Counted from the first letter of the whole stretch, positions 6,652 to 57,973 are shown. The stretch: 61,040 nt of DNA, filler included, from 13 parts of 13 records of this genome joined end to end with filler, not necessarily neighbours in it, one strand, 5' to 3'. Numbers and translations are program-made. The notes: a model not told the origin generated them from the sequence alone.

Positions 6652-6751
6652 NNNNNNNNNNNNNNNNNNNNNNNNNNNNNNNNNNNNNNNNNNNNTTAAT
6701 TAATTAANNNNNNNNNNNNNNNNNNNNNNNNNNNNNNNNNNNNNNNNNNNN
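6652..6751. other. Artificial contig spacer (44N-TTAATTAATTAA-44N). Identical spacers at 9793, 13016, 16808, 21612, 26702, 33633, 40044, 43519, 49190, 53212 and 57359
   Basis: Same 100-nt block each time; TTAATTAATTAA places stop codons in all six frames. Confidence 0.99.
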
Positions 6752-16770: not shown

Positions 16771-17328
16771 CATTCATGACAACGAGATAGGTAGATGTGT
16801 TGGGCTCNNNNNNNNNNNNNNNNNNNNNNNNNNNNNNNNNNNNNNNNNNNNTTAATTAATTAANNNNNNNNNNNNNNNNNNNNNNNNNNNNNNNNNNNNN
16901 NNNNNNNCCGAAAATGTCAATGTCAATGTCAATGTTCCCGCGTACAGTAGAGCTGTATAGGAATTCATATTGTAAGCAGTTTGAACCATGATCTCATCCT
17001 CGTAACCGGTCAATAGTATTTACAAATGTCCGGAACATCGGGTAAACCGACTCACCAGCCTCGCGAGGCGCCCCTTAGCTTGCTACAGCCGCGCGCGACC
17101 GCGCGTCGCCGCGTAAAATTTCACGACTTGCGTGCCAATGTGCGTGTGCTGGCTGCACTGGACATGCAACGGAACACCAAAACGCGCGAATACGTATTTA
17201 GGACTCCTACCGGGAGTCGGCTATTCAGAATTCACGGTCGATACGTAGAGAAGCAGGCGAATGCGGAATACGGACGCGCCGATCGACGTGCGTGGCCTCC
17301 CTGCTGCTCGAGGGCGGTGCCCCAGGGG

Positions 17329-21611: not shown

Positions 21612-22209
21612 NNNNNNNNNNNNNNNNNNNNNNNNNNNNNNNNNNNNNNNNNNNNTTAATTAATTAANNNNNNNNNNNNNNNNNNNNNNNNNNNNNNNNN
21701 NNNNNNNNNNNCAACCGCAGTGCCGGTGGCACTGCTGATTCCTCGGCTAGTACGATGTACGTGTACACTGTACAGGGATTTGCCGCTGATGCATGATCAT
21801 GAATCATGTATTCCTCGACGAATACATGTACCAAATTTCGCTAGCTGAAGCTACCGGTACAGCTGTACGTGTACTAGTACTACTCTGTCATCCTGAGTTT
21901 GTTTTTCAATGAACCCAGGCGTATTTTGTATAATAGTACTATATTTAATGGTAGGATCCCATTCGAATGGCTCAGAGATGGTGAGATGCTGAATTCCTTG
22001 CCATAGTAAATTTGGATTCGTCGTCGACTCACCGCGCGTCACCGGCCGCCGGCGTGCGAATGCGAACCGCTTGCATGGTGAGGTTCCATCCGCCGCCGGC
22101 GGTCCCGCGATCCGCGCGGTGCCCGCGCGGAGCGCGCGCGCGCGTACGTAAGGTACGCGTAAGGTACGCGTCGTAGCCTCGTCATCCCGCCCACCGCTAT
22201 CTCGCGGCG

Positions 22210-26479: not shown

Positions 26480-26981
26480 GAACGATGGCATGGGGCCCAG
26501 ACTCCGAGATGAGCTTGTGACAACAAGATAGCCGGAGAGGACCCAAATACATGGCATTGACATGTGTAGCACCTGAGACTACTATAGTAAAGCATTCCTT
26601 CGTGAGACGTAGATCCCATTACAACAGCAGGAAGTTAGGTGCACCATTCAGACCCATCACAAGTACACAAAGGTCGCGGATCACGTAACGGCGGCTTTGT
26701 ANNNNNNNNNNNNNNNNNNNNNNNNNNNNNNNNNNNNNNNNNNNNTTAATTAATTAANNNNNNNNNNNNNNNNNNNNNNNNNNNNNNNNNNNNNNNNNNN
26801 NATGAAAAAGTCAAACATGCACAGGAAACAAATACCACTCACAACCGCGCGTGCTTCGATTCGCACGTCCTGCCGCGCGTCCTGCCGACGCGTCGCGTGA
26901 GATCGCCGGCGTCTCCCGTTGTTAGCACGGCTGTGGGGGCTCAAGTATTGCGCGTGCGGCGAGCGACAGACAGTCGACGCG

Positions 26982-33513: not shown

Positions 33514-33732
33514 GGCTGAGGCTGAGGAGCTACTAGCTAGTAGATCGCTCTTAGTACGTAGTAGTGCGTTTCCTGTGTGTGTACCCTGTACCGCACGCAT
33601 TCCACGTCCCTGTTAAAACACCGATGACTGAANNNNNNNNNNNNNNNNNNNNNNNNNNNNNNNNNNNNNNNNNNNNTTAATTAATTAANNNNNNNNNNNN
33701 NNNNNNNNNNNNNNNNNNNNNNNNNNNNNNNN

Positions 33733-36700
33733 GTAACCGTACAGCCACTTGTAGTCGCTGAAGCCGTAGGTAGTAAAACCAGTAATGCGCGAGCCAGTAC
33801 CACCTTGTGAGCGCTCGCCAAAGGGAAACCGGTGAATATTGCCAGAGGTGTAGCTGCCACCGTGCTTGTTTCTCTGCACGAATCCTTCCACAGCTGCGCT
33901 TGTGAAATTATCAGTCCGTATCATATTGTCCAAGGTGTCTTCCGTCTCAACGTAATGGTGAAGATCGGCAAGCGTGTGTTGGAGCCCAGTGCTGGCGTCG
34001 ACAGCTGAGCCGCCTGATGTTTTGTCATTGTGTGCATAAAGGTACACATACTGCGGAATATTCCAGTCTTCTGTTGTAAATCTGTAGGTAGCGTCGCGTT
34101 GCCAGCCACCGCACGTTTGCAGGTATCCGTCCATGTCCCACTTGTTATAGACAAGCTCGTTAATGGGCGATCCGTCCTTTGCATTAAAGGGGAAGCGGTT
34201 GTGGAGGTCTGACGGAGGGACGTTTCCTCCTCCCCAGGGCGCCTGACCAGGGCACGAGAGGGGCTTAACCAAGTCCACGTACATGTTCTGGGTTACAGTT
34301 ACGTCGACCCAATAGTTTTCTTCAGACTCCACGCTTCCACACTCGTACGGACGCGTCAAGTCGGAATAGTCATCAAACTCGCAAAGTCCCAGGTCATTGA
34401 TAGGCTTGTTTGGATTTGTACCCGCCTGGCGCTGGACCTTCCGAGGTTCCGTATCCAGTTTAATGGTATAGTAACCGAACGTTGCGCCCTCAACGACATT
34501 GATGGAAATGGGGTCATGCGTCATGATATTGACGTTGTCTGTTGGTTCTTGTCTCAGTGTATCCGTAGTGGAAGCACCTGACTCTATCGTCACACCAGCG
34601 TAGTCGTTGTCTTTGGTGTGAATTGTTCGAATATGGTGGCGGAACGGCGTGTGGACGTCGTTCCTGCCGCCACATGTCTGATCCGGTGTCAGGAACTCCT
34701 CACACGCATACCCACCATGTCCGCCCTCCTCCAGGGTTTCATTTGCCGCGATAAGCTGATCCATTGTCATGGGAATGTACATATCTCCAACGAATTCTTG
34801 AACCTGGTAGGAATTGGTGTACGACCAGTATGTGTCACCATAATGGCTCTGTGTGATCGTGAACGACGTGAAATCGATCATCACCCCTGCGCGCTCATCT
34901 ACCAGATCGTCAACTGGGACGACCTTGATGGTCACCGGCTCATCCCATCGGTGTGTATCCTTTCCTTCTGCTTGCCCCCCGGTGTGGGTGAATGTGACAG
35001 AGGGTGGGTCGAATGTTGTTTGAGGTGTCGCGTCGGGGGTCACGACAATGAGAACGAGCTCCTCTTCGACGACCAGGATGGGCTCACCCAGATACTGCCG
35101 CTGCACGTGCTTAGTTCCTGGCGACGAGTTAAGTCGAATCTGGAATGAACCATAGTGACAGTCCGTATTCGTAGGATTTTCGTACAAGTTGGAAGTTATT
35201 GTTCCTTGGCCGTAACCAGCCTCTTCTGGGTCACCAGCCACCCATCCTCCCTGGAATGTGTCGACAATGCTATCAACAGCTTCAGACGCACCCCAGAAAG
35301 CACGTGAGTCACCCTTGACGTCACCGCGACATTCCATCGTGTGAATTGTGCACGCGAACTCGTCCTCTGGCTCAGTGAAGGCCGGCCCGATGCCCTTGAA
35401 CCCACGATTTGGTTGAGGGCTGATGGCACGGGAGTCAACGCCAGGAGTACATGCTTTGTAGCCATCCACGCTGCGATGCTGAACCGGCTGTCCGACAGGT
35501 GTGCAGTCATCGAAGGTATTTCGTATCGACGCAGGGTCCACGTCATACGGCAACCCACCAGAGGTGTACCTGTCCCAGTAAGGATCGTAATTCGTCCATG
35601 GGCGGTTGTCGATTCGGAAACACCTGTCCGACTTGCCGTTCTTTACATTCGGGTCATCGCCGAAGCAGGCAGGGTGGTCCGGATCGGTAATGTACCCGTT
35701 GCCAGAAGCACCAGCTTCTCCACGCAAGCCCCCGCCGCCAATCCCGTCATCATGGACCTGAAAACCACCTGCACTGGCCCAGTACTGCCCAGGGACGTAA
35801 GTACACGTTGCGATGTTGGAATCGGTTTCAGTGCACGAGCCAGGAGTAACGCCGAAGTCAGTCGATTCGCTCAACTGGCAATTCGTTGAGTCAAAAGCTG
35901 TGGCAGTTGCAACCAGTGTCGAAGTACAGCTGTCTGCGCTGTCCTCCTGGTCCGGCGTGCCGTCTTGATCAGAGTCTGAATATGTTCCATCAACATAGGC
36001 ACATGTGGCAACAGTACTATCAACAGCGGCGCACGACCCAGGCGTGTCACCATAGTCGCCAGTCGGGGTCAGCACACAATTGGTTGTGTCAGTAGTTGTG
36101 ACAGTAGGAACCAGTGTTGATGTGCAACTGTCTAGACGAATAACTGTGTCCAGAGACCCACTCGTTACACTGCGGCCTTGGAAGCCACTGCCCGAGATCC
36201 CATCCTCGGCGTATGCGCCAGCACGATCAAACTCATGGTACCAGTAGTTGACCCTGGGCGGAACCGCTTCAGTGTATTCACACCCACTAGGACATTCGGC
36301 AGTACCGTCAGTGTTTGCGTCGATGTCACACGTCGGTGTGTGCTCGGCTACAAAGGCACACCCGTCTGCACAGCCTGGTGGGTCTGTGCTACTGTCTAGT
36401 GCGCACGACTGTGATGAATCTGTCGGTGCGCCAGTACAGGAAGCGGAGACGATACTGGCTGTACCTGTGCAGGTAGCCGGTTCGGCATCCTGGACTTGCC
36501 TACGTTGCTGAGCACGTCGACGGCCAGCGCTGGCCTGGGTGTATGTGCATGCTTGCTGCGCGTTGTCAGAGTTTTTCATAACTGCATCGCACTCACTCGA
36601 GTCAGACAGATCAGTAACAGCATCGCATGCTGCAGCATCTGTTTCATCGGCTGAATCTCCGGTTGCTGTCTCAACGCAATCATACGTGGCCTGCGAGTCG

Positions 36701-39700
36701 CTGCTCTGCTGATTCTGATTCTGGAAGTCCATTCGATCGTATGTGTACCCATTCCAGTTCGTCCAATCAGTTGTCACTACACCAGCCGCCTCATAGGAAC
36801 CGATAAACTCCTCGTCAATCGACTGGGGATCTCCACCTTCCGACAGGTAGCTTCCATCACAAATGACAACCAAGTCTGCGATATCGTCATCAACAACCAC
36901 AACGTCGATTGAGGTCACGTTCATGCCAGTAAATTGGTGGTCCTCAAGACAAGGTTGGTCAGTATTGTGATTGTTCCCAGTGCAAGGACCGACAGTGTGA
37001 TAGATTGTGCGAAGTTCGGTCGGTTCGTCAACATCATCGTTCAGCGCAATCACAGTGATTCTGCGCGGAACGTTCCAGTCTTTGTCGGTGAACATCACAT
37101 CTAGGTCCGTGCTTCCCCTGGGCACTGGGATGTTATTGCCATCCAACGGCACATTATGAATGAAACAGCCGCTGTTAACCCACGCAGAGCCGGGATATTT
37201 TTCTCCGACACAATGTTCTTGCGACACCTCGTTGCGGTATGACGCTTCCTCGTAAAAAAAGAGCTCGTGGTCACGATATGTCGATGCTGCGAGATCTTCG
37301 CGTACGTGAACGACTACAGTTGTTCCCTCCAGCGGTGCACGGTCCAGCACGATCGTGTACGGACAAACTGGTGCTGTCATGCCCGCATATTCTGTGTTGG
37401 CATCATCTATCATAGTCCATCCGTCACCATGGAGCGACGCACAGGACACGTCAGCGCCGTCCTGTTCCCAGAAAAGGGCGTCATACTTGGGGTTGCTCGC
37501 GGACACAGTATTGTCGTCCAGGCTGCCTTGTATAGTGCCAAAAGTAGCCAGGTCTGGCGCATACCCAGCGGCATCGACAGCGGCGTCGAGTGTTTTGTAC
37601 TCCCCAGCGAAAAGACCTAGAGTCATGGACATCGGAGCGCCATTTGCGTACGTACAACCTGCAGGGCACAACGCAGTACCATCTGTGATGGAGTCTAGGT
37701 CGCATGTCAAGTTGACGTCATCGGCATTGCCGGTGCACGTAGCAGGACCGACAGCTGTCCCGTCGGCAAGGCAGCTGGACGGCGTCATCTCGCCTCGAAA
37801 ACGATCAAACCAGAACCTGCGCCCTTCTGTGGCTTCACAATGTCCACGAGAAATGGTGATACCTCGAGTGTCATCGTCCACTACCACAGTTTTTGCCGAG
37901 CAACCGATGCCGCGGTGCGTGTACTTGTCTGGTGCAAACTGCACCACCTGCAGCGCGTCCTCGGCTCCGCCCGGATTGGCAGCGCTGGTAGGGGTCCCGT
38001 CATCAAGCTCACAGCAACAAACTTGATTGGCTGCGTCGTTAACATGATAAGCAGAAGAACGGTCTGCAACAATCCCTGTCGTAGCTGGGGTGAACACGCA
38101 GCCGCTCGGACAAGTTGTCGACGGAGTGGCCGCGTCACCCGCCACGTAGTCAGTGGAGCAGTCCGCAACAGTCGGTGTGCAAGTTTCAGAGTCACCATCG
38201 CCAGCAAGCGTGCATGCAGAGGGGCACGATGTAGAAGGATTGCCAGCAGTCCCCGGGACGTAGCCATCACACGAGGCAACCTCGCACGTTTCATCTGTAG
38301 GAGTCACAGGGATCTCGGCAAGATACGTGCAGGCACCCGCATCTGTGCAAGTCGCAGCGTTGCCATCCAACAGTACTCCAGATTCTTCATGCTGCATGCG
38401 CGTTCTACATGCAGCTGCAGCTGTCGCTACGCAAGACTCTGGGTCTGCCGTGTACGTGCAGGCGCCCGCAGCAGTGCATGTCGCTTCAGTTCCGTCCAAA
38501 GCAACTGCCGCACACACAGCTGCATCTGTTGCTTCACAAGTTTCTGGCGTCGCAATCGCCCGCAATAGCCCCAGGTCATCTTCAGTTGCGATGCGCGGAT
38601 AGCGATTTATGTGGCGACCAAAGCGTGTATCGAACATGCTCAGATCGACCGTAAAATCTGCTAGTTGAGCGTCGACGTACGGACGATACGCGGAGTTGGT
38701 CGCCATCATGAGCCGAGCTCCTGGTGAGTTGTAGTACCAATCGATGCTCTCATACAAAAATCCGATTGAACTGGTACGATTCCGACCTTCGTCCGTGTTG
38801 TCGTCGACAGCAATCACCTCAAGGGCTTGCCACGTGTTCCAGTTCGTAGTCGAGAACGTGACATACGAGTTGCACGAGAACCCTGAGGTGGGTAGGATGG
38901 ACTCGACACCGTCCTTGTTGTAAAATCGAACTGTGATGAAGTCACCGTCCTTCCGGCAGCCGTGAACGGCCTCGGGAGAGTCGCAAGCAACCGCCCTGCA
39001 CGTCTCCCTTGTAAGCGTATCACGGTTGCTGGTGTACTCAAGGAATTGAGTTTGCGACGACGCATCGAACAGATCCTGGCGATCCCATCGATCTTGCAGG
39101 TCTACCGTGCCTTCGAAACATCCCCGTGTCGGATAGTTTCCGATCTGACCTGCGCCTGGAAAACTGGGGGGCACAATGCCTTCCTCCGGCGTGCGCTCCA
39201 CTGTACTACCGGAGCTGAAGCAAGTGTCGAACTGAGCCTTGTCCTGGAAAATTACCTGCTCATCGTCAGGCTGCATGTTGCAGTACGTGGAATCACAAGT
39301 TGGCTCCTCGCCGGGAGTAAAAAATGGACCACTCTGCAGATATACAGTCACTGGGTACGTCGGTTCACTGGCTAAGCGAAGTTTGATCTCCGAATTGTCT
39401 GAGCCCTCGATTGGTTGAGCAGTGTGTACGTTCTCGATCACTACGGCAGGGTCGTTGTCGGCGATGCTCACCGTCACGTCGTTTACCTCGATGTCATCGT
39501 AGTACGTATGCTCGAGATTGATATCTTGAGCGACGACGAAATGGTGCACGTACGAATCCTGCCCGCGGCGATTCACCTCTGGCTCGTACACGTCATCGTC
39601 TCGTGCCATGAGTGTGACAGTCTGTGGGACCTGCCAGTTGGTGCTGTCGAACACCAGCTGGGCAGCGGATGAAAGATCTCCGCGCCACGTGGAGCCACAT

Positions 39701-40002
39701 TGGACTGCCGTGTGGTCCCCTGACGTGGGCAACTCGCAGCTCCAGTTCGGTTGCAAGAAGTTCGGGGCCTCTGGCTGCTGGTCGCCGCCATTGAGCACCA
39801 GTTCTGGGCAGTTCGCGTATCGGCACACGGCGTCCGGATCCGTGCGCGTGCGTAGGACCTGGTTGCCGACAACGTCTATGCGATAGTCCGAGCTGCCCGA
39901 GACCGTATCGGCCAGCGGCACAGGGCTGCCATACGACCAGGCAGGTCCGTCCTGATGACCACCGCCAGTCTCCACAGGTACCACGCCATCATACACGGTC
40001 AT
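33733..40002 (-). CDS. Fragment of a giant acidic extracellular protein with Calx-beta/Ig-like repeats and Cys-rich repeats; likely truncated at both ends
   Basis: Intronless ORF of about 2090 aa. Five repeats of F-x-x-x-[ND]-W-x-x-P-Q-x-V-x-x-x-A-x-D-D type (FDSTNWQVPQ, FSTTNWNTWQ, FTDKDWNVPR, RWDEPVT, FTTEDWNIPQ). Confidence 0.85.
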
Positions 40003-40480
40003 ACCTACAGGCTTTCAGCGACTACAAGTGGCTGTACGGTTACNNNNNNNNNNNNNNNNNNNNNNNNNNNNNNNNNNNNNNNNNNNNTTAATTAATTAAN
40101 NNNNNNNNNNNNNNNNNNNNNNNNNNNNNNNNNNNNNNNNNNNGCACGAGATAGAGTATAAGAATAATCACGTAAATGATGACAACAATAGGGTTATCAT
40201 AGGGTTGGGCACTCAGAGTTGCTAAACTGCTGAGTGCCCTCGCCGCCCGGTGGCGTACGCTCCAGACGACTGACGTGCAATCTGCACTAATTCTTCTTGA
40301 GGATTGTTGGGAAATGCACGGTAGAGATTTGTTTGGTGCAAATTCAATGTAAACGTCGAATCCTCGCTCGCGTGAGGACCAGCAGCACACAACATACCCA
40401 TTGGCGCTAGCTACCGTACAACGGCTACGATTGCACCATTTGCAGTATCAGACCACTCTAACGCGAATTGCTATTCATCG

Positions 40481-43278
40481 CTAGTGACTAGCGTTGTACA
40501 AGCTGGACAGTCTTTCCACGCTGACTCTCGCTATAGGCGAGGCCGAAGCGGGCGAGGCAGCGAGCTTGTCGACATTGGCTCGCTGTTTCAACCGTTTCAT
40601 CAAACCTGCATCGCACGTCACATCGCAGAGTAAGGAAGCTGCAAGTCCATGGTATAGCAAGCAGCAATCGATCCGAAAGCACTAGATGTTCTACTCATCA
40701 GTTCACTCTTTTGCATCAATTCAATTCGTCTCACCGGTCAGCGTCTGTGATTGAAATGCCTTGGTGAAGACGCTGCTCTTGCTTTGCTTGCCAGACAACC
40801 GATCTTGCCACCACGTCCAGAACTCTTCAAAGTCAACTGAACCGTTCCCATCACCATCCATCTCTCCCATTGCCTCCGTAAGCTCCGTATCACTCAGCAA
40901 ATTGGCACTGTCATCGTCGTCACCATTGCTGCCTTTGAGCTCCCGGGCCAGCTGCCGAATCTCGTCTACGTCAAGCGTTCCTGAGACAAGGCCAAATGCA
41001 TTAGCGTCAACAAAATGACGGAGGCAGCTCTAGCAGGTCAGATCAGATCCGGAAGCGGAGCAAGAAGGAACTCACCGCTGTCGTCTGCATCAATGGAGTC
41101 GAATATTGTCCGTGCCACACTTCGATCTGCATCCGCCGTCATCTCTTGTTTCTCTCTTCGCTTCTTGGGGCTCAGGGTATTGATGAACTTGCGCATCCCT
41201 GACTCCATTGCATCGGCCTGTGATGCCGCATCAGCCTGTGCGGAGACAAACTTTTGGTACCAGTCCTTGAACTCGTCGTAATCCACACAGCCATTGCCAT
41301 CGGCATCCATCAACGCCATCGCAGCGTCTAAACCCGCCTCGCTCTCGATCTCAGCGCCAAGAGTTTTGGCAAGGTTAGCCACCTCCTCGCGATCTAACCC
41401 ACCGCTGCCATCGGCATCCATCTTGTCAAACAGGCGACGGACAACATCGTCGGAGTGCTGCAACGGTGGAGGCTTGACAGGCGGAGGCCGTGCTTTTTGG
41501 TTTGTCCCGCCTCGTCGCCCTCCAAAGAACTTTCCGAAGACACTGCTTTCCCAACCGGAACTGCTTTCATCGGGGTGAACGGACAGGTCCTGCGCCGCTG
41601 GTGGTGAATCCTCGTCCCTCTTGACCGTCTCCGTCCACCAGCTGAAAAACTCGTCGAAATCCACTTCACCGCTGCCATCTGCGTCCATCACCGCCATCGC
41701 AACATCTAGCTGCTCCTCGGTCATACTCTCACCCATCATGGCCTCGCCAAGCTCTGATATTTCACCACGATCGAGCGTGCCGTTCCCATCCACGTCCATA
41801 GTATCGAACACTTGACGCACCTTCTCACTGTAGCTGAGATTCGGGTCTGAATTGGTCACGTCGAACTCAAGCTTGATCGGGTTGCCGTTGACACCGTCCC
41901 ACTCTTCCCGCACCGCAATCGCGCAAGAAACCGGACCGAACTTCGATGCTACCAGCAAAGACTTTACCGCAACCTTCTTCTTCGCTTTCGCCTCACGCAC
42001 CGCCAGCTCGCGAGCTAACTGTAGTGCGCGGCGTTTGGCCGCGTTGCGCTCCGACAGCGCTACCGCTTCATCAACAACTTCGATCAACATCAGGGTCGCG
42101 CCATCGCGCGTTGCACGCTTGTCCGCCACGCGCCTCCTTGCATAGAAGCAGCGCAAGCCACACTGCATGGTGAGCACAGCGGCACGCACTGTCACGAACC
42201 GCTGCCTTGCTACCCGCCCACGAAAACACGCCTGGATCCTTGTCGCCGAGAATTGCATAATCCTGAGGCACTTTCGCTGCTGGTGGCCACGCCACAGTGC
42301 CTGGACCTTGGCGGCGCTCTTGTTCAGGAGTTTCATGTACTGCCGGGCAAGATAGCCACGCCAGCCACACTGAATTACAAGTGCGGCACTGTGCAACTGC
42401 GGCTCGAGGGAGTGGGGGATGTGCCGGATGTAATTCTGCTTCTGAATCTCGCGGTCAAGCACAGAAACCTGATCCTGGAAGCTGGCCTGAAGCAATGTGC
42501 CCGCGAGAAGCCGGTATGACTGACCTCTGCTGCGGCTCTTTTGACCATTCGTGCTGCTGCCTCTGGCCACCTGCATCTCGCTTGCCAAGAAGGTCGGTGC
42601 GTTCGTTGGCTGCCTGATGAAATTGGCCACATACGTGCCTTGCTGCTGCATCAGACTCCCTATGTTCGGCGCGCCTGCAGCGCGACCGAGCGGTGCGAGG
42701 TGTGCCTCAAGCTTACGTCGCACCTGACTGTCCTCGGCTCCTTCCCCGGGTCGCACAGAGAGGGGCTCTCCGCCGGTCGTGTGCCTTCTGCGGCTACCTG
42801 CGGGCTGGGCCACACGTCCAGACCGGCGCCTGAGATCTGCCTGCACAGCTGGGCTGTCCACAGCGATGAACTGCTCGTGTAGACTGGCGGAGTATGGTGT
42901 CATCAGCATCGCCCGATCCCTTGCAGTCGACGGCAGACCGCCGGCGGCCACGAAGCTAGTGCGATGCCAGTCCGGAGTGTGCAGCCGACCGTCGCGGTTG
43001 AACGTCTTCGGCCGGGGCACCGCAACCTCCGTCCACAGAGGAGTCTCACCACGCGCGAAGCTCTCTAGCCCAGGGTCGGCCCAGCCCTCCGTCCCCAGGC
43101 TGGGCAGTCGCCTCTCCGACGACACGGCATCGGGTGCTGCTTGTCTCCGACCCGCCTGCGCTCTCTGAGAGCCCGTGGAGCGCTGCCGCTTCCCTCGCGA
43201 TCCGTACGCCCGCGCGTTGTCCAGGCTGTTTAGGATCCGCGGCGCGCTCTTGGACATCAGCCCTCGCTCGTCGCTCAT
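40481..43278 (-). CDS. IQ-motif and multi-EF-hand calcium-signalling protein; last exon uncertain
   Basis: Four IQ motifs (IQCGWRGYLAR, VQALWRGH, IQACFRG, MQCGLR) and three EF-hand pairs (DVDGNGTLD, DADGSGEVDFDEF etc.). Intron at 41075-40981. Confidence 0.85.
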
Positions 43279-43493
43279 CTCCTGCGCTGTGGCCACACCA
43301 GCTCAGCGCCTCCGAGCACAGAGACGACTGAGCGAGAGAGAGACCCCACGGCTCAGAGGGAGACGACTGTGGCTTCCACTGAGGGCGCGCTCTTCGACAT
43401 CAGCCCTTGCTCGCCGTCCATCTCCCACACTTTTCTGAGTGGCCACACCCGCTCCTATGCTCTGCGGTGTGGAAGGCAGGGAGAGGCGACAGC

Positions 43494-43518: not shown

Positions 43519-44027
43519 NNNNNNNNNNNNNNNNNNNNNNNNNNNNNNNNNNNNNNNNNNNNTTAATTAATTAANNNNNNNNNNNNNNNNNNNNNNNNNN
43601 NNNNNNNNNNNNNNNNNNTCAAGACCAAGTATCAGATTATAGACAGAAGTTCCGGGACCTCCTGCTGGCCACCGCCTGCCTTCTGCGCGTGGCTGCCGTG
43701 GGCCGCCGCGCGCGTGCGCTCGACCACGCAGCGACCCCTTCCGGTACCGTGTAGCAGTGCTGCGAGGTAGGCAGGTGGTAGCGCGCCCACACGCGTGTGG
43801 CCGCGTGCGGCGCCTGCGAGCGCAGCGAGAGGCTGCTCCACTGGCATCGCCGCGTCAGCAACAGCATTATGTAAGCAAGCGCACCGGCGACGGTTTGATT
43901 CCGGCGACGATTGTCGAGCTGCGAGCGCGGCGTTCAGATATCCAATTATGTAGGAAAACGGGGCGTCGGTTCCGTCCCTGTGGTATAGATAGAGAGCTGG
44001 TGAGTGAAGTGGCCAATCGCGCTGGGG

Positions 44028-44981
44028 ATGTCCGATCTTGACTCCGGTGGGCCGGACTACTACGCCGTGCTAGGGTGCTCGCCGGACGTCGATGCAGCGA
44101 CGCTGCGTAGGACTTTCCGGCGCTTGGCTGTCAAGTACCACCCTGACAAAAACCAAGAGCCTGGTGCTGACGAGCGCTTCAAAGAGATCAGCGAGGCTTA
44201 CGAAGTGCTCTCTGACCCGGCACGCCGCAGCGTATACGATCGTGATGGCCACAGAGGGCTCAACGGCCTGCGGGCCCGCGAAACTGCGCGGCGGCGCGAG
44301 GAGTCAGCGGCAGCACGCGAGTCCACCAGCAGCAGCCAAGATCCACGTCGGCCATTTGCCGGGGGTGGCAGCGGCCCGCAGTGGCGTCCAGGCAATGGTG
44401 GCCCTAGCGCCTGGCCTCCACCGCGCAACCCTTCTCCTTCGCCACCTCCACCGGTTGAGCGACCGCTGCAAGTAACGCTGGAAGAGCTGTTGTTTGGATG
44501 CTCGAAGACGTGCGTCGTAAAAGAGCGCTCCACGCCAATCGATGGTCCGTCTGTTCCACAGCACGTCGTGGAGGTGCAGGTAGAACCGGGCTGGAAAGAC
44601 GGGACTAGGGTGACATTTGAGGGTGCGGGGGTAGATCGTGGCGATGTCACTTTTGTTGTATTCGAGATGCCTCACCCGCGCTTTGAGCGAAATGGCGACA
44701 ACTTGTCGACGAATGCGCAGATCTCTCTGAAGGACGCGCTTTGTGGCGGAGTTGTGGCTGTCCCGACGCTGGACGGCTACCGTCACGAGTTGCTCTTCAC
44801 GGGTAATGATGGCGTTATCGCACCCGGGCGGCGGCGAACCATTGAAGGACTCGGTATGCCCAAAAGATCGGCGGGGGTAGGACTGACTGGCGAGCGCGGG
44901 GTTCTAGTTGTAACGTTCGAGATAGAGTTTCCGGTCAAGCTGAGCCCAGACCAACGGCTCAGACTCTGCGCGCTGCTGTAA
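44028..44981 (+). CDS. Class B DnaJ/Hsp40 co-chaperone
   Basis: DYYAVLG..KYHPDKN..FKEISEAYEVLSD J-domain. C-terminal domain VTLEELLFG, PGWKDGT, HPRFER, GLGMP. No zinc finger. Confidence 0.92.
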   Translation: MSDLDSGGPDYYAVLGCSPDVDAATLRRTFRRLAVKYHPDKNQEPGADERFKEISEAYEVLSDPARRSVYDRDGHRGLNGLRARETARRREESAAARESTSSSQDPRRPFAGGGSGPQWRPGNGGPSAWPPPRNPSPSPPPPVERPLQVTLEELLFGCSKTCVVKERSTPIDGPSVPQHVVEVQVEPGWKDGTRVTFEGAGVDRGDVTFVVFEMPHPRFERNGDNLSTNAQISLKDALCGGVVAVPTLDGYRHELLFTGNDGVIAPGRRRTIEGLGMPKRSAGVGLTGERGVLVVTFEIEFPVKLSPDQRLRLCALL

Positions 44982-45352
44982 GGGTACCGCTGACGACATG
45001 TCATCGACAAACCTAGCCGCTATCACGGACGAACACGCCTCGGCACTCGGTTTTGGACGTTGCTGGCACACATTTTCAATCACGCTACATGCATCATTAC
45101 GTAATTGTAGTATATACATGCATGATAGTGCTGCCGCCTCTGCCGTCGCCGCTGCTACAGCAGTCCGAGCGGGTGAGTTGCAGTGAGCATGGCGTACGTC
45201 TTCGGCGTTCGACCACTCGACGAGTTGGTATGACACGGCGAGAAACTGGCGCACAGCATAAGTTAGTTGCAGAATTCTGCTGGGCCGAATGTGTACCAGC
45301 TCAACAACAGACACAGGAGTGTTATTTTGCTGGGGCCAACTGTATCCTAATT

Positions 45353-48300
45353 TTACTTCTCAGGTTTCTTGCCCTCTTCGGTGCTTTCGTCTTCTGGGCC
45401 TTTCCCGCCACTACTGCTGCCGCCTGTCGTCATGCTAAAAAACATCTCAACCTCCAGCATCACGGCTGCCTCAGTGCGCCGAACAATTTCATTTTTGACA
45501 TGCAGCTTGCGTCGCTGTCAATTTTGTCACGAGCCACAATCACGCAGCCAACGCGACACCCACACGATCTCAGCTGTTAGTGGCAGCTGGAAGCGCATTC
45601 GAATAATTATGCTAGCAAGTGGAAACCTGGCATTTGACGAAATCAGGCCAATCCGGCACGATACTGGGCGTCTAAATTTGATGCCTACCTCCACAAAGGT
45701 ATAGCTGTCCCAATCATGCAAAATTTGTGTCAAATCTTTGAAAGCTCGGTTTAGCGATGCCACTCTCGTCTCAAGCTTTTGATATTCTAGAATCCCAGAC
45801 AACAAGCTGATAGTTGACGTCTGCACGTAATCATCAAAACAGTACAGCAGAAGGTTCAGCGTGAGTTTAGAGGTGAGCGATTGCGGGCAATGGACTGGGC
45901 AGGTGCTCACCGAGATTGCAATATATAAGTCCATGTTGAGCGTCGCGAGCAGCACACTCACTGTTGACATCACGTACATAAGGACCTGCAAGAGGTTCTT
46001 GCGACTATTCAACTCAGGCAGCTTCTCTTGCATCAGCTTGTGCTGCGGAATAGTGCGGCAGGCGATGTAGTCATGAACAGTGAGTTGAGAGTATCCATCG
46101 TCTTTGAAGTCTTTTTCCACCTCTGGAACATCAGTATCCTCGAGCGTGTCGTACTTTTGCGAGGTCTCTGCGTGCCTTTTCACATTCTTGTTCGCCTTCA
46201 GCTCTGTCAGACGCTGCCGGCGCAGATCATCTTTGAGCTCATCGCTTCTCTCAAATTGCATGGAGGATTGTGACACGGCACTATCTGCCATCACCGTATC
46301 CAAGATGTCCTTCATGTTATCGGTGTATCGTCTTGCGAGCGGCTTTTTCTTCTGGTCGGTGTCCTTGTCGTCAAGCAGCCACGAATCGCTCGTAGCGACA
46401 GCGTTATACGGTGAAGCTCGTGCACGGTACTTGTACGTCTCTGACACACATTGCTCTGAAGCCCATTTGTAGATCACAAACTTTTTGTCTGCGCCAGAAA
46501 GAACGGAAGTCATAAACAGGCGGACTAGATACGACTGACTCTCAGGTGTAAGAAGATACGCAGGTGCAAGAAGGTACGCAGTCTCAGCACATGATATGGC
46601 TGTTGCGCACAGGGGTTGAACTTGGTGTTGATCGTGAGTATCAAACCATTTAGGATCGGCATAACCAGCAGAATGTTTCTCAGGGCTGGCAGCCACTCTT
46701 TCGGTGTCGTGTGCTGAACGTGCCTTGCAGCTGCTATGACATGGCCGCACGCATCTGCTTTCGGCTTAGGCGGAAACGCAGCTTGCTTGGTGATAACAAC
46801 ACACACCAGCAGTAGAGCAATCAGGAGCATGAGGTAGTTGAATATGTCAGACTGCAATTGTTCGCTTTTCGCATTTCTCTCGAAACGGATTGAGTGGTCC
46901 CAGGCCTTGGCCATCGATTGTCGCTCGGCGGGCTTGAAGCCGAGTTGTCGTTCCTCGTCTCCTCCGATCATCGTCAGCATCTGTGCCATCTCGATCTGGC
47001 ACTGCGCGCCAGCCTTCTTATTCTGCGGGTGCAGATCAATTACAATCAGTTCTTCTGATAGAGCTCGTTCAATGGCGCCGTCGAAAAACACTTCGGGTCC
47101 AACTGCATCTGCCGATGCCGAGGCGAAAGTTCCCCCCATCAACACTTCTTCCGTATGCGGGCCCCGCGGGAACTCATCACTCGCGTTCATCGGCGGATTT
47201 TCCACATCTCTGTCTGCATTTGCGCCGGCAGCACACAGATCGAAACGTTTTTGTGACTTCGTTGGAATTTTCTTTGGCTTCGATTGTTCGAGGTTTTTGC
47301 GTTTGTCCCGCTCGTGACGGAGATCAATCATCCTGCTAAGGAGTTCCGATGCGCCTCCACATGTTTTGAACGAGATGACAGGGTTTGATTTGGCGATAAA
47401 CGCGGCTGCACGATTGAAATCAGTCTGTCCGCCATTCATGATAAGGAGGCCCTCAGCGGCGCCCTGCCTGCTCGTCAGCTGGTCTCGTAAATCGTCGACC
47501 TTGTTCCACGGCAAGACTTGCCCCCCATCTCTGTCGAAGCCTTTCTCTTCCTGCCCTCGTACACCACGTTTCACACACGACACACAGCACAAGATATCAG
47601 TCTGGCGATGTTGACACGCCATGTGTGAGCAAATAATGCGCCCGTACGAAGAAGATGAAGTGGGTCGATTCCGGGTGCATGTGCATCTCCTTCTTCTCTC
47701 CTAGTGCTTTCGTTTGTTTCTCAAGCCACTGCATCAGAGAATCTGACCCTTTGCTACCTTGAAGATCCGCAAGCCTCGGGAATGGAGTCTTCGGTGCTAC
47801 GTACGTTACCGCTTCCGGCTCCTTTGGCAGGCGAATCTCTTTCTCGCCCTCTTCGGCCGTCTTTGGTATGTCGACACTTCCCTTTCGCAGCTCTTTCACC
47901 AGGTACGAGTGCAAGTCTTCTCCGTGCAGCTCCTCGCGCTCGCCAGTCTCGCTGTTCTCTCGAACTTGCCCTGCACCTTTTTTTGCCGCAAAGAGGTCCG
48001 GGTTGTCCAGCGACGCAAAGTTAAGCCACGTAGTTGTTTCAAGCGCATCGTAGGTCTGGATGCAGTCACCAATCAGCTGGTGAGGAGCGCCACGGCCGGC
48101 AGAGTTCATAAACCAGCCGTCTGCGTTCGCAACGCCCTTCACGACATCTTTGAAGACATCTAGAGTACGGTCGCAGAACTTGCGGACCATTTGATCTTCG
48201 TCGTCGTCTGAGATGACGTCATTCCCACGGGACGTCGTGCGGGATTCTTCGGGACCGCCGGACCACTGCTTACGTAGGTAATCGTTCTTGATGACGTCCT

Positions 48301-48912
48301 GCGCCTCATCCATATACGACATGCCCCTCGCGCGAACTTCGAAAAGTATTGACGGCTTGCAAATCCGACTGTCTTCGCTTTGCTCGGTGATGTCATCGTT
48401 CGCCGCATCGGGTGCACGCATGAATCTCGCCACGTTTGTGACGAGGTCCTCGGCGCTGTGTTTCTCCGGCACGATGAGGTACTGCGCAGTTTTGCCTGTC
48501 TCCTCCTGCGCAGAACCCAGCAAAGAACAGCCCAAGCTAAGCGAGCAAGACGCCGACAGAGGCATAGCGGAGGGCAAGCCGACGACTGCCGTACAAAGTA
48601 GATCTTCCCATACTTGAACTGTTCGCAGGGTTGCTCCGCGAGGCGATCTTTCTCCGCTTCTTGTTTGGCTGTCAGCTCGTGCTCGGTTGGTTCCGGTTCT
48701 GGCTCCGGGACGGCCTCTGTCTCGGCCAACACCAGCTCGGCCAGCTCCCGGACCCGAGCAGCACTCGGAGTACCACGGATGCTCGGCTCGGGTGCCACAA
48801 CCGCCGAGTCGCGCTCGACCGGCGCAACTTGCCGTTCTGGGGTCCACTGCCCGGCTGGACTGGGCGGATCGAACTGATCCTTTATGTTCTCTATGTCCGA
48901 CACCGCGCCGGC
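45353..48912 (-). CDS. SLOG (LSDAT/TRPM-N-like) domain fused to two SLATT/DUF4231-like 2TM modules; at least 6 exons; 5'-partial
   Basis: Introns at 48594-48506, 47647-47551, 46610-46489, 45910-45821 and 45688-45515 give a continuous frame. Motifs HPESTHFIF, LLIMNGG, PVISFKTCGGASELL; SEQCVSETYKYRARASPY; DDGYSQLTVHDYIACR; W..E..IVRRTE. Confidence 0.7.
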
Positions 48913-48934
48913 CTGCTCCAGCACGACACGTTCT

Positions 48935-49189
48935 CGTCAGAGACAGACTCATCGACAGAGTGACAGAGCGACACAGCGACAGACGCGGCAAGCCGCCGCT
49001 GTCCGCATGTCTGCTGCGGCTCCCATCCATCCATCCATCCAGCCACACAGCCAGGCAGCCAGAGAGACAGACAGGCGCGCGCGCGCGCACACACACAGAG
49101 AGAGCAAGAGACACAACCCCAAATAGCCACCCACAGCCACAGCCACAGCCACCCACAGATACACACACACACACACACACACGGAGAGA
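48935..49189. repeat. Compound microsatellite tract (GACA, CATC, CAGCCA, CA), probably intronic
   Basis: Read directly; lies upstream of the acceptor at 48913 of the SLOG gene. Confidence 0.85.
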
Positions 49190-49289
49190 NNNNNNNNNNN
49201 NNNNNNNNNNNNNNNNNNNNNNNNNNNNNNNNNTTAATTAATTAANNNNNNNNNNNNNNNNNNNNNNNNNNNNNNNNNNNNNNNNNNNN

Positions 49290-52200
49290 AACGCGTTCTA
49301 CACAACCAAGCCAACTCGTGTTACGCGCTCCAGGATCGAAAAGGAGCTATCTCTTGCTGGATTCAAAGGCGGATATGACGCGGCAACTGATGAGCAGCTC
49401 GAGCAAGCCAAGCGTGCAATCATCTTTGCACCTGCTGAGGTTGATCTCTCCGGTCCGTCTTGGATTGAGAAGCTCTTCCGGATGAAAGACCGCGATCGCT
49501 CTGGAACCCTTGACTTCAAAGAGTTCAAGGCGATTGTTCGTCGCTATGGCAAAGTCGGGCCGAAGACACTCTCTGATGAGGACATCTTGCAAGTATTCAA
49601 GCAGGTTGATAGTGATGGGGACAGCCAGATAGACGCAGATGATTTTGAAACGTTCCTGCGTTCGCCACCAGCGGACGTTTTGGTCGCATGGCAGAAAAGC
49701 CAAGGCAGGGCAGCTGGGGGGGCTGGGACGACAGGGGACGTGCAGATGCAAGTGCGTGCAATCGGTCGGTCAGACCGTGACAAGCTCTGGTCGACATACG
49801 ACTGGAACACTAACAACAAACTATCTGTCGCTGAGATCGACAAAGCCTTGCGGCACCATCCTCCTCCAGGCTGGGTTGGAATCCACAACAAGAGAGCTCT
49901 GCTGTTGGCGTTCAAGTCCGCAGACAAGGACTGGTCCGGCTATATTACCCGTCGCGAGTTTAATCGGCTGCTCAAGTATATCGTGTTCTTCCATATGCTA
50001 TGGGAGAACTTTAACGACCTGGACTCAGACGGCGACCACCGGCTTGACTTCGGCGAGTTCTGCCACTGCTGCAGCCACCTGGGACTTGGAGGCGACCTGA
50101 CAGACCAGGAATTGATGGAGGAGTTTGCATCGATTGATACAAACAGGGGGGGCTACATCATGTTCGACGAGTTCTGCGTCTGGATGGCCCAAGCTGTACT
50201 AGGGGAAGATGGTGGAGCGATGACCTGGGAAGAGCTGGTAATAGAATTTCGTGATCAAAAGGAAGGCGGTGCCTGTGTGCTGCACAGGATGGCAATGGAC
50301 GTACCGAACCAAAGCAACGGGCTGCTGAAGCGCTGGGCGAAGTCGTACTATGAATTTGACGTTCACGATCTACAAATGCTCTGGCGGACAAGCCCTCCGG
50401 CTGGCTGGATCGGATTTACGAGCCATCGAGCGCTACGCCTAGCATTTGCTGCGACAGATATCTTGCAGGCGGATGTCATCGGCCGCGAATCACTGAGCGA
50501 CCTCTTAAAGTACATTTGCTACTTCCACGTGCTGTCCTCACAGCTGCTCGACACGGACGAGATGACAGCAGTATGGCTCGGGCGAGTGGAGTGTCGCGGT
50601 GTGAGCTGGGACGAACTTGACGTCTGGTTTGCAGAACACCAAAGCTACGCGCGGCGGGTTGCTCGCGGAGAGCAGCCCTGGCTTGATGAGGTGGGTCCTC
50701 GCGATACCAGCCACAGCGCGCACCGCGCTAGTCCAGTCTGTTGCTCCCCACAGCATCTTCACATGAGCCGGCAGCAACAGGAGCCGAGTCATGCCGCTTC
50801 CGGGTCCGCAAGCGATCACAAAGACTACAGTCTCGTCCCTGAAGACAACATCAACGATGACAGTGTCAGTGCCGATAAGTTTGAGGCGAAAGCTGCGGAG
50901 TTTGCTTCCAAGGCAGCTGTCGTTGAAGCAGATGTCAAAAATGCAGAGCTCGAGACTGAGCTCGAGCACCAAAAGCGCCTGGTAGAGGAGCTGCGCGTAC
51001 AGATGCAGGAACAACAGCGTCAGCAAATGGAAGAGATGCGCGTGCTTCAAGAGCAGATGGCCAAATCGATGTTTCCAGCGCCGGCCCCAGTGAGATCAAG
51101 TGCACAGGAGAAGCAGCTGCTGTCACAAGTTGCGAAGTTAGACGAAGACGCACAGTCGACTGATTTGGAGTCTGGCGGCGACTCTGATGCAGATGACCTT
51201 CTGCAGCAGAGAGGGGAAGAAAGCCACGGTCCTGGCGGAACCATAGAGCTTCACCTTAAGGAGAAAGGTCCTCTTGGGTTTGCAGTTTCTCAGTCAGGTG
51301 GAAACACCCCCGCAGGCAATAGCGGCGGTAATGAGTGGCTGGTGACATCCATCTCTGCTGAAGATGGCCCCAACTCATTGGACGTCGAGAGGAGCGGATT
51401 GGAGGCAGGCTGGGTTCTATGGAAAGCAGGCAAGGTATCAGGTAAGGAGAAGCTGCTGGGCGAATTGTCATTTGTGCAGGTGACACGCCTGCTTAAAGAT
51501 CGGCCGATCAATCTCATTTTCAGCAAGCACAAGCAAAGCCAGACTCCGTACAAGGAAGCTGAGGATGTCACAGCAGCTAGAGCAGCGGTGGCGGAGAATG
51601 CGACTGCACTGAGGCAGGATAATCCCGAAGAGAGAGACAGGGATGCGAATGACCTAAACCAGGAGCGTGCGGTTGCGTTGAAACGAGACACGAAAGAAGC
51701 GCGAGAAGCAAGCCATCGGAGGGACACTGCTGGGCAGCGCCAGCGCCAGCAAACCGTTGGAAAGACGAACAAAAAGTCACTGTTGCGTGGATTTGGTGGC
51801 GCACCAGACAGCAATAGTGACAGCGACAGCGATTCAGAGCTAGACCTGTCTTCTGGGTCTTCTGGATCCTCCTCTGCGGATGAAGACGGCGAAGCTGACA
51901 ATGTGACCTCATCGGTAGCCACGGCGCGCAAACGCCAACAAGCAGCAGCATCGGCAGTAGCAGCTGAACAAGCGGCAAGCATGGCGGGAGCCATTGCACC
52001 TTCGCGCTCTTCAGGTGGAAGCAACGGTAACCGATCATCAGGCAAAGATGAGGCTGATGCAGTGCAGTTTGCGGCAACAGGGGATAAATTGGCGATCTAT
52101 ACGTTGCATGGCGAGCGTGGTGGCTCCTATCCTCAAGAGGCGTCGCTGGTGTTGAAGCACGAGAGATTCTTCTGGCTAAGTGCTGCCTCCCCCGCGCCAA

Positions 52201-52840
52201 TGCTATGCTGGGACAAGAAGAAAACCAGGATCCCCAGCGCAAAGAAAGGCCTACTAGCGGTTGAGCCAGGGTTGCCGATGCCATATGCTGGAACAACTCA
52301 ACGTAGTGCCCGAGAGTGGTTTAACGAGTTCGACACGGATGGCTCTGGCACGATTTCGGACGACGATTTCGCGGAGCTCTACAAGCGTGCAAGGTGCGCA
52401 ACCACACTCATACTTAGACACAGCAGCCACAAGCAATGATTTGCAGATGGAGAGAATAATGCATAGTGTGTCTAATCGATGGAACTATGCGCAGGGGAGA
52501 GAAACTTTCCTACAAGGATAGGGCTGCTGCTGTGGCTGCCATAGACACAGACGGGAGCGGCACGATTCAGTTCCGGGAGTTTGAACAGTGGTGGTCAGCT
52601 CATGTCGATAGGTCCCAGGCTGGTGAGTTGGCCAAAGTCAACGCCTAACCCAGCTGGTGTTATGATCACCGTGCCTGCTTGCGTGGTTATCTGCGTGCAG
52701 CTTCAGGTGGTGACTTGGAGAAGTGGCGTCCGCGCGCGCTGACTGTAAAGCTAGTTGGTGACGCCGAGTTGCTGCTAATAGCAAAGCACCCAACTACGAG
52801 ACAGCGATGGCTCACGGCAATGCTGGCAGCGCTGCGGTGA
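49290..52840 (+). CDS. Multi-EF-hand protein with calflagin/FCaBP-like region, coiled coil, PDZ-like segment and C-terminal PH domain split by an EF-hand pair; 5'-partial
   Basis: Frame open from the contig start. DRDRSGTLDFKEF; LSVAEIDKA..AFKSAD..EEFASIDTNRGGYIMFDEFC. Introns at 52394-52494 and 52623-~52700. Ends RQRWLTAMLAALR*. Confidence 0.8.
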
Positions 52841-53311
52841 GGGTGCGTGACACCGCTGCGGTACTGGTACATGTACTATACTGGTGACTATCTTGCATCT
52901 ATAACGATGAATATATCTCTCGATTAGCGCCGGCAGTGTTGAATACGGCATTAGGCTGTAGGATGTACCGACACGTACCCGCTGTTACATGGGCAAGTAG
53001 ATAGATCTATGTCAGAATGGATCTAGCTAGGACGGAGCAGGTGGGTGGCCTGCGGACGGTTGGTGCTTGTAACGGGACGACGGCGCCCGTTTGGCGGCGC
53101 TGATGTAGGCGCTGCGTGTGCACGCTGAACGTAGCGTACTCTGTGAGCCGCTCGTTGAATTTACGAAATGACCAACTCCTTTCGCATCGACAAACAGGAG
53201 CATTACGAGTTNNNNNNNNNNNNNNNNNNNNNNNNNNNNNNNNNNNNNNNNNNNNTTAATTAATTAANNNNNNNNNNNNNNNNNNNNNNNNNNNNNNNNN
53301 NNNNNNNNNNN

Positions 53312-57358: not shown

Positions 57359-57973
57359 NNNNNNNNNNNNNNNNNNNNNNNNNNNNNNNNNNNNNNNNNN
57401 NNTTAATTAATTAANNNNNNNNNNNNNNNNNNNNNNNNNNNNNNNNNNNNNNNNNNNNACGACCAAAGCCGAAGCCCAGCCGAGGGACAGAGGTGCGCTC
57501 GCCACAGCCAGAGACAAACCAAACGGGGAGAGGGATCGCACAACATGGTGCGACTAGGCGGATCATGGTATGAAGGCGTCAAGGGGGGCAAAGCCCCCCG
57601 TCGCAGAACACACATCACATCATTGCGAATGTTCTAAACAGTAGATATCACGAGTTGAGGAATTCAGGATTCATCGGATCGGGTGAAGTCTTCATATGAT
57701 CGCGTGTGACCATGCAGCTGTTGTCTCGTGTCGAAGACTGACGGAGATTGATGAATTTAGCGAGACTGGGAATTGTCGAAGGGGCGAATTCAAATCATAC
57801 ACGCGGCAGTCAGTGACCTTGCTGTGGCTACCGATTGAGCCGGCGACGCTTGATATCTCGAGTATGGTGTATGATAGGATTGACACCGGGCATTTATAAG
57901 GCCTTATGCCCGGTGTTAGCGTTGTGAAAACTGCTAAAGTCAACGAATCAATTTTTGCACACTCACGTGGATC

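Follow-up and report, generated by a model that had tools for sequence, protein, structure and literature searches.

A spliced marine protist gene encoding a predicted, diverged LSDAT-SLATT protein

The stretch of DNA analyzed here, hereafter called the window, is 61,040 nucleotides (nt) long and harbors on its minus strand, between positions 45353 and 48936, an expressed nuclear gene of a marine protist. Judged mostly from its relatives, the encoded protein is a diverged eukaryotic member of the LSDAT-SLATT kind, which is already known from bacteria, and is not a TRPM channel.

Gene structure and transcripts

The original prediction, made from the sequence alone, had proposed that five introns join one split frame, and this was borne out: six coding pieces, separated by five introns with GT..AG borders, form a single frame of 1003 codons that is open at its 5' end and closes with a stop codon at 45353-45355. 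The peptide motifs that had been listed for the protein were likewise all found in minus-strand frames, close to where they had been placed. The features of the gene are as follows, P numbers denoting relatives of the protein, L001 a contig of a relative and TM a transmembrane helix; domain and TM limits were derived by arithmetic from residue numbers and are accurate to a few codons.

48595-48936, minus strand: exon 0, 114 codons, 5'-open and without an in-frame ATG
48506-48594, minus strand: intron 0, 89 nt, GT..AG; P0002, P0016 and P0020 are continuous here
47648-48505, minus strand: exon 1, 286 codons; N-terminal three quarters of the SLOG/LSDAT-like domain and a variable acidic insert
47551-47647, minus strand: intron 1, 97 nt, GT..AG; P0006 is continuous here
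46611-47550, minus strand: exon 2, 313 codons plus 1 nt, a single open reading frame (ORF)
46489-46610, minus strand: intron 2, 122 nt, GT..AG, phase 1; placed from relatives and L001
45911-46488, minus strand: exon 3; helix following TM2, charged linker and start of the second module with TM3
45821-45910, minus strand: intron 3, 90 nt, GT..AG; skipped in an X3 RNA contig
45689-45820, minus strand: exon 4, 44 codons
45515-45688, minus strand: intron 4, 174 nt, GT..AG; skipped in X3 and X5 RNA contigs
45353-45514, minus strand: exon 5, 53 codons plus stop
46933-48621, minus strand: predicted TRPM-type SLOG (LSDAT-like) domain, approximate limits, introns 0 and 1 inside; mapped from residues 1-565 of the P0026 model via BLAST
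46406-46911, minus strand: first predicted two-helix transmembrane (2TM) module, DUF4231/SLATT_3-like; TM1 46789-46845, TM2 46630-46689 and a conserved helix past intron 2
45428-46108, minus strand: second predicted 2TM module, SLATT_1-like; TM3 45938-45997, TM4 45785-45928 (spanning intron 3) and two C-terminal helices, introns 3 and 4 inside

Exon 0 encodes an acidic, proline-rich N-terminal region; its last part is the first strand of a conserved beta-hairpin with which the SLOG domain begins. Identity of this exon is 71% to P0001 and 51% to P0002, and the alignment is unbroken over the junction of exons 0 and 1. Exon 2 comprises, in this order, the final SLOG strands, which bear two conserved glycine motifs, then a low-complexity linker, a closing SLOG strand and helix, TM1 and TM2. 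As these last SLOG motifs and TM1-TM2 lie in one ORF (47550-46611), the SLOG half and the membrane half of the protein are linked without any splice, and the SLATT-type modules are thus fused to the SLOG-like domain.

At the 5' end, the boundary at 48912 that had been assigned to the gene turned out to be merely a possible acceptor site, and a scan for ATG codons showed that the frame of exon 0 runs open, without an ATG, back to 48936. With the contig reaching no further than 49189, the gene has no defined start; the missing start is explained by this contig end, which lies in a CA repeat 253 nt upstream of exon 0. Apart from its 5' end, we take the gene model to be sound.

RNA contigs from four metatranscriptome runs (X1, X2, X3 and X5) were placed on the stretch, words of which occur in 20 RNA runs of 15 studies. 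One X3 contig skips both 45821-45910 and 45515-45688 (introns 3 and 4), and one X5 contig, from the other of two studies, skips 45515-45688 (intron 4). All contigs from X1 and X2 were unspliced, even over intron 4, which X3 and X5 show spliced; therefore, these two runs, which carry DNA or precursor RNA, give no information on splicing. Introns 0, 1 and 2 were not confirmed by RNA among the four runs, the X1 contigs over intron 0 being unspliced. Linkage of the parts of the gene by transcripts was thus seen directly for introns 3 and 4, while the three upstream introns are backed by comparison with relatives.

For this comparison, phmmer was run with exon 1 against 1.84 billion representatives and returned 36 relatives at E <= 1e-3, 22 at E <= 1e-10 and 5 at E <= 1e-30. 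Many of these are either fragments or predicted genes in which introns were read through (e.g. P0001); the long ones follow the spliced model collinearly along almost all of its length. P0002 reads straight through junction 0 and P0006 (56% identical) through junction 1, supporting introns 0 and 1, respectively; P0018, P0028 and P0026 align without gaps at junction 2 and, in the BLAST alignment, over all junctions. P0018 matched the spliced model over residues 117-882 with E 6e-112, which places the model beyond chance; P0028 matched with E 1e-79 and P0026, which is 25-29% identical, in two blocks (E 4e-33 and 7e-48). In addition, the metagenomic DNA contig L001 of a relative (63-77% amino acid identity) shows intervening sequence with stop codons where introns 2, 3 and 4 lie in the window, and conservation between it and the window tracks the exons and breaks in the introns. 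The nuclear, eukaryotic origin of the gene is seen in its spliceosomal introns and in a G+C content like that of the rest of the window; RNA of the organism occurs in marine metatranscriptomes.

Two further observations were made on the RNA contigs. An X2 contig (depth 14.7) lies wholly within intron 4 (window 45515-45658), begins exactly at the acceptor-side end and may correspond to the excised intron; it carries an 8-letter loose end that looks like a sequencing adapter. An X1 contig departs from exon 0 at 48827-48899 in two substitutions and three deletions (8, 1 and 3 bases), the latter summing to 12 and keeping the frame; these differences look like a strain variant of the low-complexity N-terminal region.

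Domain composition of the protein family

The N-terminal half had been assigned to the TRPM-type SLOG/LSDAT domain. Of this assignment, the fold, as modeled for a relative, and the likeness to TRPM stood, while the cut-offs of the corresponding Pfam models (PF18139 LSDAT_euk, PF18171 LSDAT_prok; 25.4 and 25.7 bits) were not reached. The LSDAT models gave no match on the exon translations of the window scanned singly, and sub-threshold matches to LSDAT_euk or LSDAT_prok (14.4-15.3 bits) were obtained at equivalent positions in four of the 22 relatives scanned (P0007, P0028, P0037 and P0039). When sequences of the PDB were searched with exon 1 alone or with the A1 profile, one unrelated match each was returned (E 0.54 and E 1, respectively). 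With the fuller A2 family profile, all nine matches at E <= 10 were TRPM proteins, the best being the TRPM2 chanzyme (E 0.044). In the alignment with the latter, the two C-terminal glycine motifs fall on matching TRPM loops and the N-terminal hairpin on the TRPM hairpin.

The fold itself was assessed on an AlphaFold2 model of the relative P0026, which has a mean predicted local distance difference test score (pLDDT) of 73.8 and values of mostly 85-90 in the N-terminal domain. All 37 rows obtained with Foldseek against the PDB at E <= 1e-3 were TRPM chains. A second structure alignment gave Z 16.1 for MHR1-3 of TRPM7 (8sib; root mean square deviation (rmsd) 4.4 A over 295 residues) and Z 15.2 for TRPM3 (9n4j; 4.0 A over 276 residues). 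When 48,161 representative chains were searched independently, TRPM proteins took all of the first eight ranks (Z 11.8-17.0), among them the crystal structure of TRPM2 MHR1/2 (7aov; Z 13.8, rmsd 4.6 A over 275 of 377 residues), followed by generic coiled coils with Z of about 10 that match the helical hairpin insert. The matched range reaches to about residue 560 of the model, and the strand and helix past the long linker therefore appear to close the SLOG domain just before the first TM helix. As a lead only, the named top clusters shown by the ESM Atlas (ranks 1-3 and 11) were all LSDAT, with scores of 0.78-0.79. Taken together, the model supports the view that the N-terminal domain has the fold of TRPM MHR1/2, which represents the LSDAT branch within the SLOG superfamily of nucleotide-binding domains. 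In SLOG domains, the glycine-rich loops that follow the core strands line the ligand site; exons 1 and 2 of the window contain three glycine motifs that rank with the most strongly conserved columns of the family.

For the C-terminal half, a 2+2 topology had been expected, with SLATT-type hairpins and no TRP-like six-helix (6TM) channel. Both expectations on topology held. Hydropathy gives four helices in two separated pairs, with peaks at residues 542-560, 595-613 and 785-803 (numbering from 48565) and a weaker, Ser/Thr-rich fourth helix; the peaks of TM1 and TM2 reach 2.76 and 1.82. No ion-channel family of Pfam was found in the 22 relatives. In the P0026 model, two helical hairpins, each followed by cytosolic helices, are predicted with pLDDT 80-95. 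The assignment of both hairpins to the SLATT clan stood in part: the 2+2 helices and near-threshold Pfam matches in relatives favor it, while the gathering score was not reached.

Three models of the clan were considered, PF18181 SLATT_1 (cut-off 26.3 bits), PF14015 DUF4231 (24.7 bits) and PF18184 SLATT_3. In the second module, P0018 matched SLATT_1 with 26.1 bits (E 9.5e-6, hidden Markov model positions 7-120 of 122), which is borderline below the cut-off, and lower scores were obtained for P0028 (24.6 bits), P0026 (15.8 bits) and P0037 (15.4 bits). Exon 3 of the window itself scored 12.7 bits (E 0.13) over exon residues 140-184, covering the first third of the model; the second module of the window protein matched the corresponding stretch of P0018 with E 4.8e-40. 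At the equivalent place in the first module, P0028 matched DUF4231 with E 0.012 (16.5 bits against the cut-off of 24.7). In the ESM Atlas, the first module of P0026 was linked to bacterial DUF4231/SLATT_3 clusters with a score of 0.91 and 199 shared features, the ten best named matches all belonging to the clan. Accordingly graded, the first module looks DUF4231/SLATT_3-like and the second SLATT_1-like in sequence. A complex prediction for four copies of P0026 residues 795-930 gave a score of 0.00 in a run with neither controls nor an alignment, and is evidence neither way.

The family columns conserved best are the glycine loops and the residues flanking the TM helices; the motifs just after each hairpin and the polar, Ser/Thr-rich TM4 are also conserved family-wide. 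Every relative that is long enough to include both SLATT-clan modules has them in the same order. The N-terminal extensions vary among relatives and include a GYF domain as well as weak IQ and weak Myb-like matches, the GYF domain being placed ahead of the SLOG domain in P0029 (residues 479-517, 27.7 bits against a cut-off of 25.8). A search with the A2 family profile listed at least five members; among the matches listed, none carried a precomputed Pfam domain and 'hypothetical protein' was the sole functional name. Word-based searches with exon 2 for longer proteins and with the SLATT_1 region of P0018 for shorter ones found none, and Foldseek returned no match at E <= 0.001 among predicted viral structures (BFVD), giving no link to viruses.

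Where the window protein has an acidic insert in its SLOG domain, a cysteine-rich insert was observed in P0026 (residues about 95-117) and P0037 (residues 268-292), with weak matches to a RanBP2-type zinc ribbon (E 0.025) and to Kazal_2 (E 0.07).

Contigs of the window

The window is composed of 13 contigs of 3-7 kb, separated by twelve identical artificial spacers, each consisting of 44 N, a 12-nt six-frame stop linker and a further 44 N.

6652-6751, 9793-9892, 13016-13115, 16808-16907, 21612-21711 and 26702-26801, no strand: artificial spacers 1-6
33633-33732, 40044-40143, 43519-43618, 49190-49289, 53212-53311 and 57359-57458, no strand: artificial spacers 7-12, of which 49190-49289 ends the contig of the gene

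Because separate contigs are strung together in this way, gene order over a spacer is meaningless. The contig of the gene (43619-49189, 5.6 kb) carries, besides the SLOG-SLATT gene, a DnaJ gene only. Genes at 41038-43302 (minus strand) and 49290-52439 (plus strand), the products of which are large proteins with several EF-hand pairs each, one also with an IQ motif, were rejected as neighbors, being located on other contigs behind artificial spacers. The same applies to the kinase, JmjC and galectin genes found elsewhere in the window, which lie on other contigs.

The same 22 bases occur at 12994-13015 and at 43619-43640, the ends of two contigs, which looks like an overlap in the assembly graph. 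Contig 9893-13015, whose two long ORFs gave no Pfam match, may thus be the true left neighbor of the DnaJ gene. Contig 33733-40043 has a 30-nt inverted repeat at both ends and is nearly filled by one ORF of ~2100 codons that gave no Pfam match at E <= 0.001.

Known systems and putative function

Bacterial LSDAT_prok-SLATT fusions were reportedly defined computationally by Burroughs, Zhang, Schaffer, Iyer and Aravind in Nucleic Acids Res in 2015. They are said to show the same order as the protist protein, with a TRPM-type SLOG domain, a DUF4231-type 2TM module and a further SLATT 2TM module in one polypeptide, and, like it, to lack an enzymatic effector domain. The protist protein differs from them in being encoded by a eukaryotic nuclear gene with five spliceosomal introns, in its size of ~1000 residues, with an acidic stretch added at the N-terminus, an inserted segment in the SLOG domain and long linkers of charged character, and in a divergence so strong that the LSDAT and SLATT models of Pfam miss their cut-offs.

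Among proteins of known structure, the best match of the N-terminal domain, as modeled for P0026, is to TRPM channels (examples of which are TRPM2, TRPM3, TRPM7 and the choanoflagellate TRPM2 chanzyme), with Z 13.8-17 and rmsd of about 4-4.6 A over 275-295 residues, and this match includes the N-terminal hairpin as well as the strand and helix that close the domain late. Like TRPM, the protist protein is a eukaryotic membrane protein, with its predicted cytosolic SLOG domain ahead of the membrane part. Unlike TRPM, the protist protein has four predicted helices in two hairpins instead of a 6TM channel domain, and no MHR3/4 was seen in its family, although fold alignments are no clean test of MHR3/4.

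The same building blocks are described for Thoeris defense, where SLOG senses and SLATT damages the membrane: ThsA (SIR2-SLOG, type I) responds to 3'cADPR, a form of cyclic ADP-ribose (cADPR), and ThsH (SLATT, type VII) to canonical cADPR (10.64898/2025.12.03.692087). There, each block has a protein and a system of its own and shares an operon with a TIR gene, whereas the protist protein has them fused and belongs to a eukaryote. PADLOC models had no match in the protist exons or in eight relatives. SLATT modules are further described from marine algae and their viruses: EMIHUDRAFT_256646 of Gephyrocapsa huxleyi is an annotated SLATT protein (10.64898/2026.09.30.755861), Tetraselmis polinton-like viruses carry a SLATT_4 gene (10.1101/2025.10.09.676808), and one such module is said to respond strongly in an infection experiment (10.64898/2026.09.30.755861; 10.1101/2025.10.09.676808). 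No SLOG domain is mentioned in the descriptions of these proteins, by which alone they were compared with the protist family. In the literature searched on LSDAT, and on SLATT together with SLOG, no eukaryotic LSDAT-SLATT fusion was found; an earlier mention is possible.

On balance, we lean towards the protein being a diverged eukaryotic LSDAT-SLATT protein that acts as a ligand-gated membrane pore, with a SLOG sensor and two SLATT hairpins. The SLOG domain would bind a small nucleotide-derived ligand, for which an ADP-ribose-type molecule is the best guess. Binding would then change the packing or the oligomeric state of the SLATT hairpins, and the rearranged hairpins would render the membrane permeable. 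The logic would be the one put forward for SLOG-SLATT and TIR-SLATT systems of bacteria, with a parallel in the gating of TRPM2 by ADP-ribose; the functions offered in the original prediction (nucleotide activation, a pore or cell death, antiviral immunity and domestication) are suggested by analogy. SLOG is described to bind 3'cADPR in type I Thoeris, and the SLATT effector ThsH to answer cADPR in type VII Thoeris, where it is thought to oligomerize in the membrane (10.64898/2025.12.03.692087). In TRPM2, the ADP-ribose site is formed by MHR1/2 (PMC13143021). SLATT proteins are moreover presented as membrane effectors needed for defense in type VII Thoeris, CBASS and DRT10 and presumed to breach the membrane as oligomers (10.64898/2025.12.03.692087; DRT10 preprint), though the DRT10 preprint calls the activation of SLATT an open question.

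As to the role of such a pore, an effector of defense or programmed death and a physiological channel gated by a second messenger are suggested about equally tentatively, the rest being left to other cellular roles. The former is slightly favored by the patchy and fast-diverging nature of the family with its variable N-termini, and the latter, also slightly, by the precedent of TRPM and by the presence of words of the stretch in 20 RNA runs of 15 studies. A more specific scenario would make the protein a descendant of bacterial LSDAT-SLATT effectors that still functions as a suicide or alarm pore. An ADP-ribose-type signal, such as cADPR or a TIR product, would gate this pore when viruses infect marine protists. 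No living domain would then be closer to TRPM MHR1/2 than the SLOG domain of the protein, and the family would preserve the state before a TRP channel replaced the SLATT hairpins. We regard this combination as unlikely.

Several results weigh against the proposed ligand-gated pore or the domain assignments on which it is based. Scanned singly, the exon translations of the window gave no significant match to Pfam, NCBIfam or PADLOC models, the best being SLATT_1 with E 0.13, and neither the LSDAT nor the SLATT-clan models reached their curated cut-off in any of the 22 relatives scanned. The evidence on the fold comes from P0026, which is only 25-29% identical to the window protein. A model of the window protein made from exon 1 only was of low quality (pLDDT 63.2), and nothing in the PDB matched it at E <= 0.001, a Cas12 chain with E 0.11 coming nearest; such a failure is expected of a domain cut before its last strands. 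Comparison of the first with the second module by hhalign revealed no detectable likeness (E 0.56), which argues for two different SLATT-clan modules and against a recent internal duplication. No TIR, cyclase or CD-NTase domain was found fused in the 22 relatives scanned or among 26 long ORFs of the window, only one of which (DnaJ) belongs to a true neighbor, and no signal generator was found on the 5.6-kb contig of the gene itself. Signaling partners in eukaryotes need not be genetically linked. PADLOC models had no match in the eight relatives, and the 5' start of the gene is missing. Finally, an LSDAT domain can serve structurally, as in a ciliary-tip protein of Tetrahymena that matches the P0026 model with Z 9.7.

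A different explanation would dispense with the pore: the four helices might tether a nucleotide-binding or nucleotide-cleaving domain, a LOG-like hydrolase or a sensor, to an organelle or to the plasma membrane. SLOG domains are described to include enzymes and non-channel sensors (PMC13143021; 10.64898/2025.12.03.692087), and pore formation by SLATT is not directly demonstrated, its activation being an open question according to the DRT10 preprint. However, conservation of the membrane modules equals that of the SLOG domain and extends to the polar, Ser/Thr-rich TM4 and the motifs behind the hairpins, which a plain anchor would not need. In addition, two different SLATT-clan modules are kept in their order in every relative reaching that far, and the nearest folds are the non-catalytic TRPM sensors and not LOG enzymes. 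A membrane-anchored SLOG protein of this type thus appears somewhat unlikely.

Less credible still is a structural or scaffolding role, in which an LSDAT fold would have lost its ligand binding, as in the Tetrahymena protein, and the TM segments would set the membrane location. The glycine-rich loops, which align with those of the TRPM2 chanzyme, belong to the best conserved columns, and the TRPM matches (Z 14-17) are far higher than that of the Tetrahymena chain 9nw3_6A (Z 9.7, rmsd 4.8 A, 231 of 256 residues), so that we consider this role quite improbable even though an LSDAT protein is reported in the structure of the central-pair tip of Tetrahymena (preprint) and the variable N-terminal parts of the relatives resemble adaptors (GYF with 27.7 bits, IQ, Myb-like). 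A non-working gene, be it a 5'-truncated pseudogene or an artifact of assembly or contamination, is very improbable indeed: exon 0 lacks an in-frame ATG, the contig ends 253 nt upstream of it in a CA repeat and the window concatenates short contigs, but no stop interrupts the frame over its six exons and 1003 codons, RNA of two studies shows two introns excised with precision, conservation against L001 follows the exons and breaks in the introns, and the contig end accounts for the missing start.

As a diverged LSDAT-SLATT protein with a possible pore function, the protist protein would join the increasing number of bacterial immune-signaling parts known from eukaryotes, with the sensor (SLOG) and the membrane effector (SLATT) in one protein. 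The family is currently invisible to annotation, no precomputed Pfam domain being present among the matches listed. In the literature searched, no biochemical demonstration of a ligand or of a pore was found for any LSDAT-SLATT protein, and the gene offers a single-gene system for two questions, namely which ligand is bound by a TRPM-type SLOG domain outside animals and whether SLATT hairpins open membranes. It further bears on the origin of the N-terminal sensor of TRPM. The fusion of SLOG with a TRP channel is placed in an early eukaryote by a review of TRPM evolution (PMC13143021), and a SLOG domain joined to a different membrane module would represent an intermediate that a phylogeny could place.

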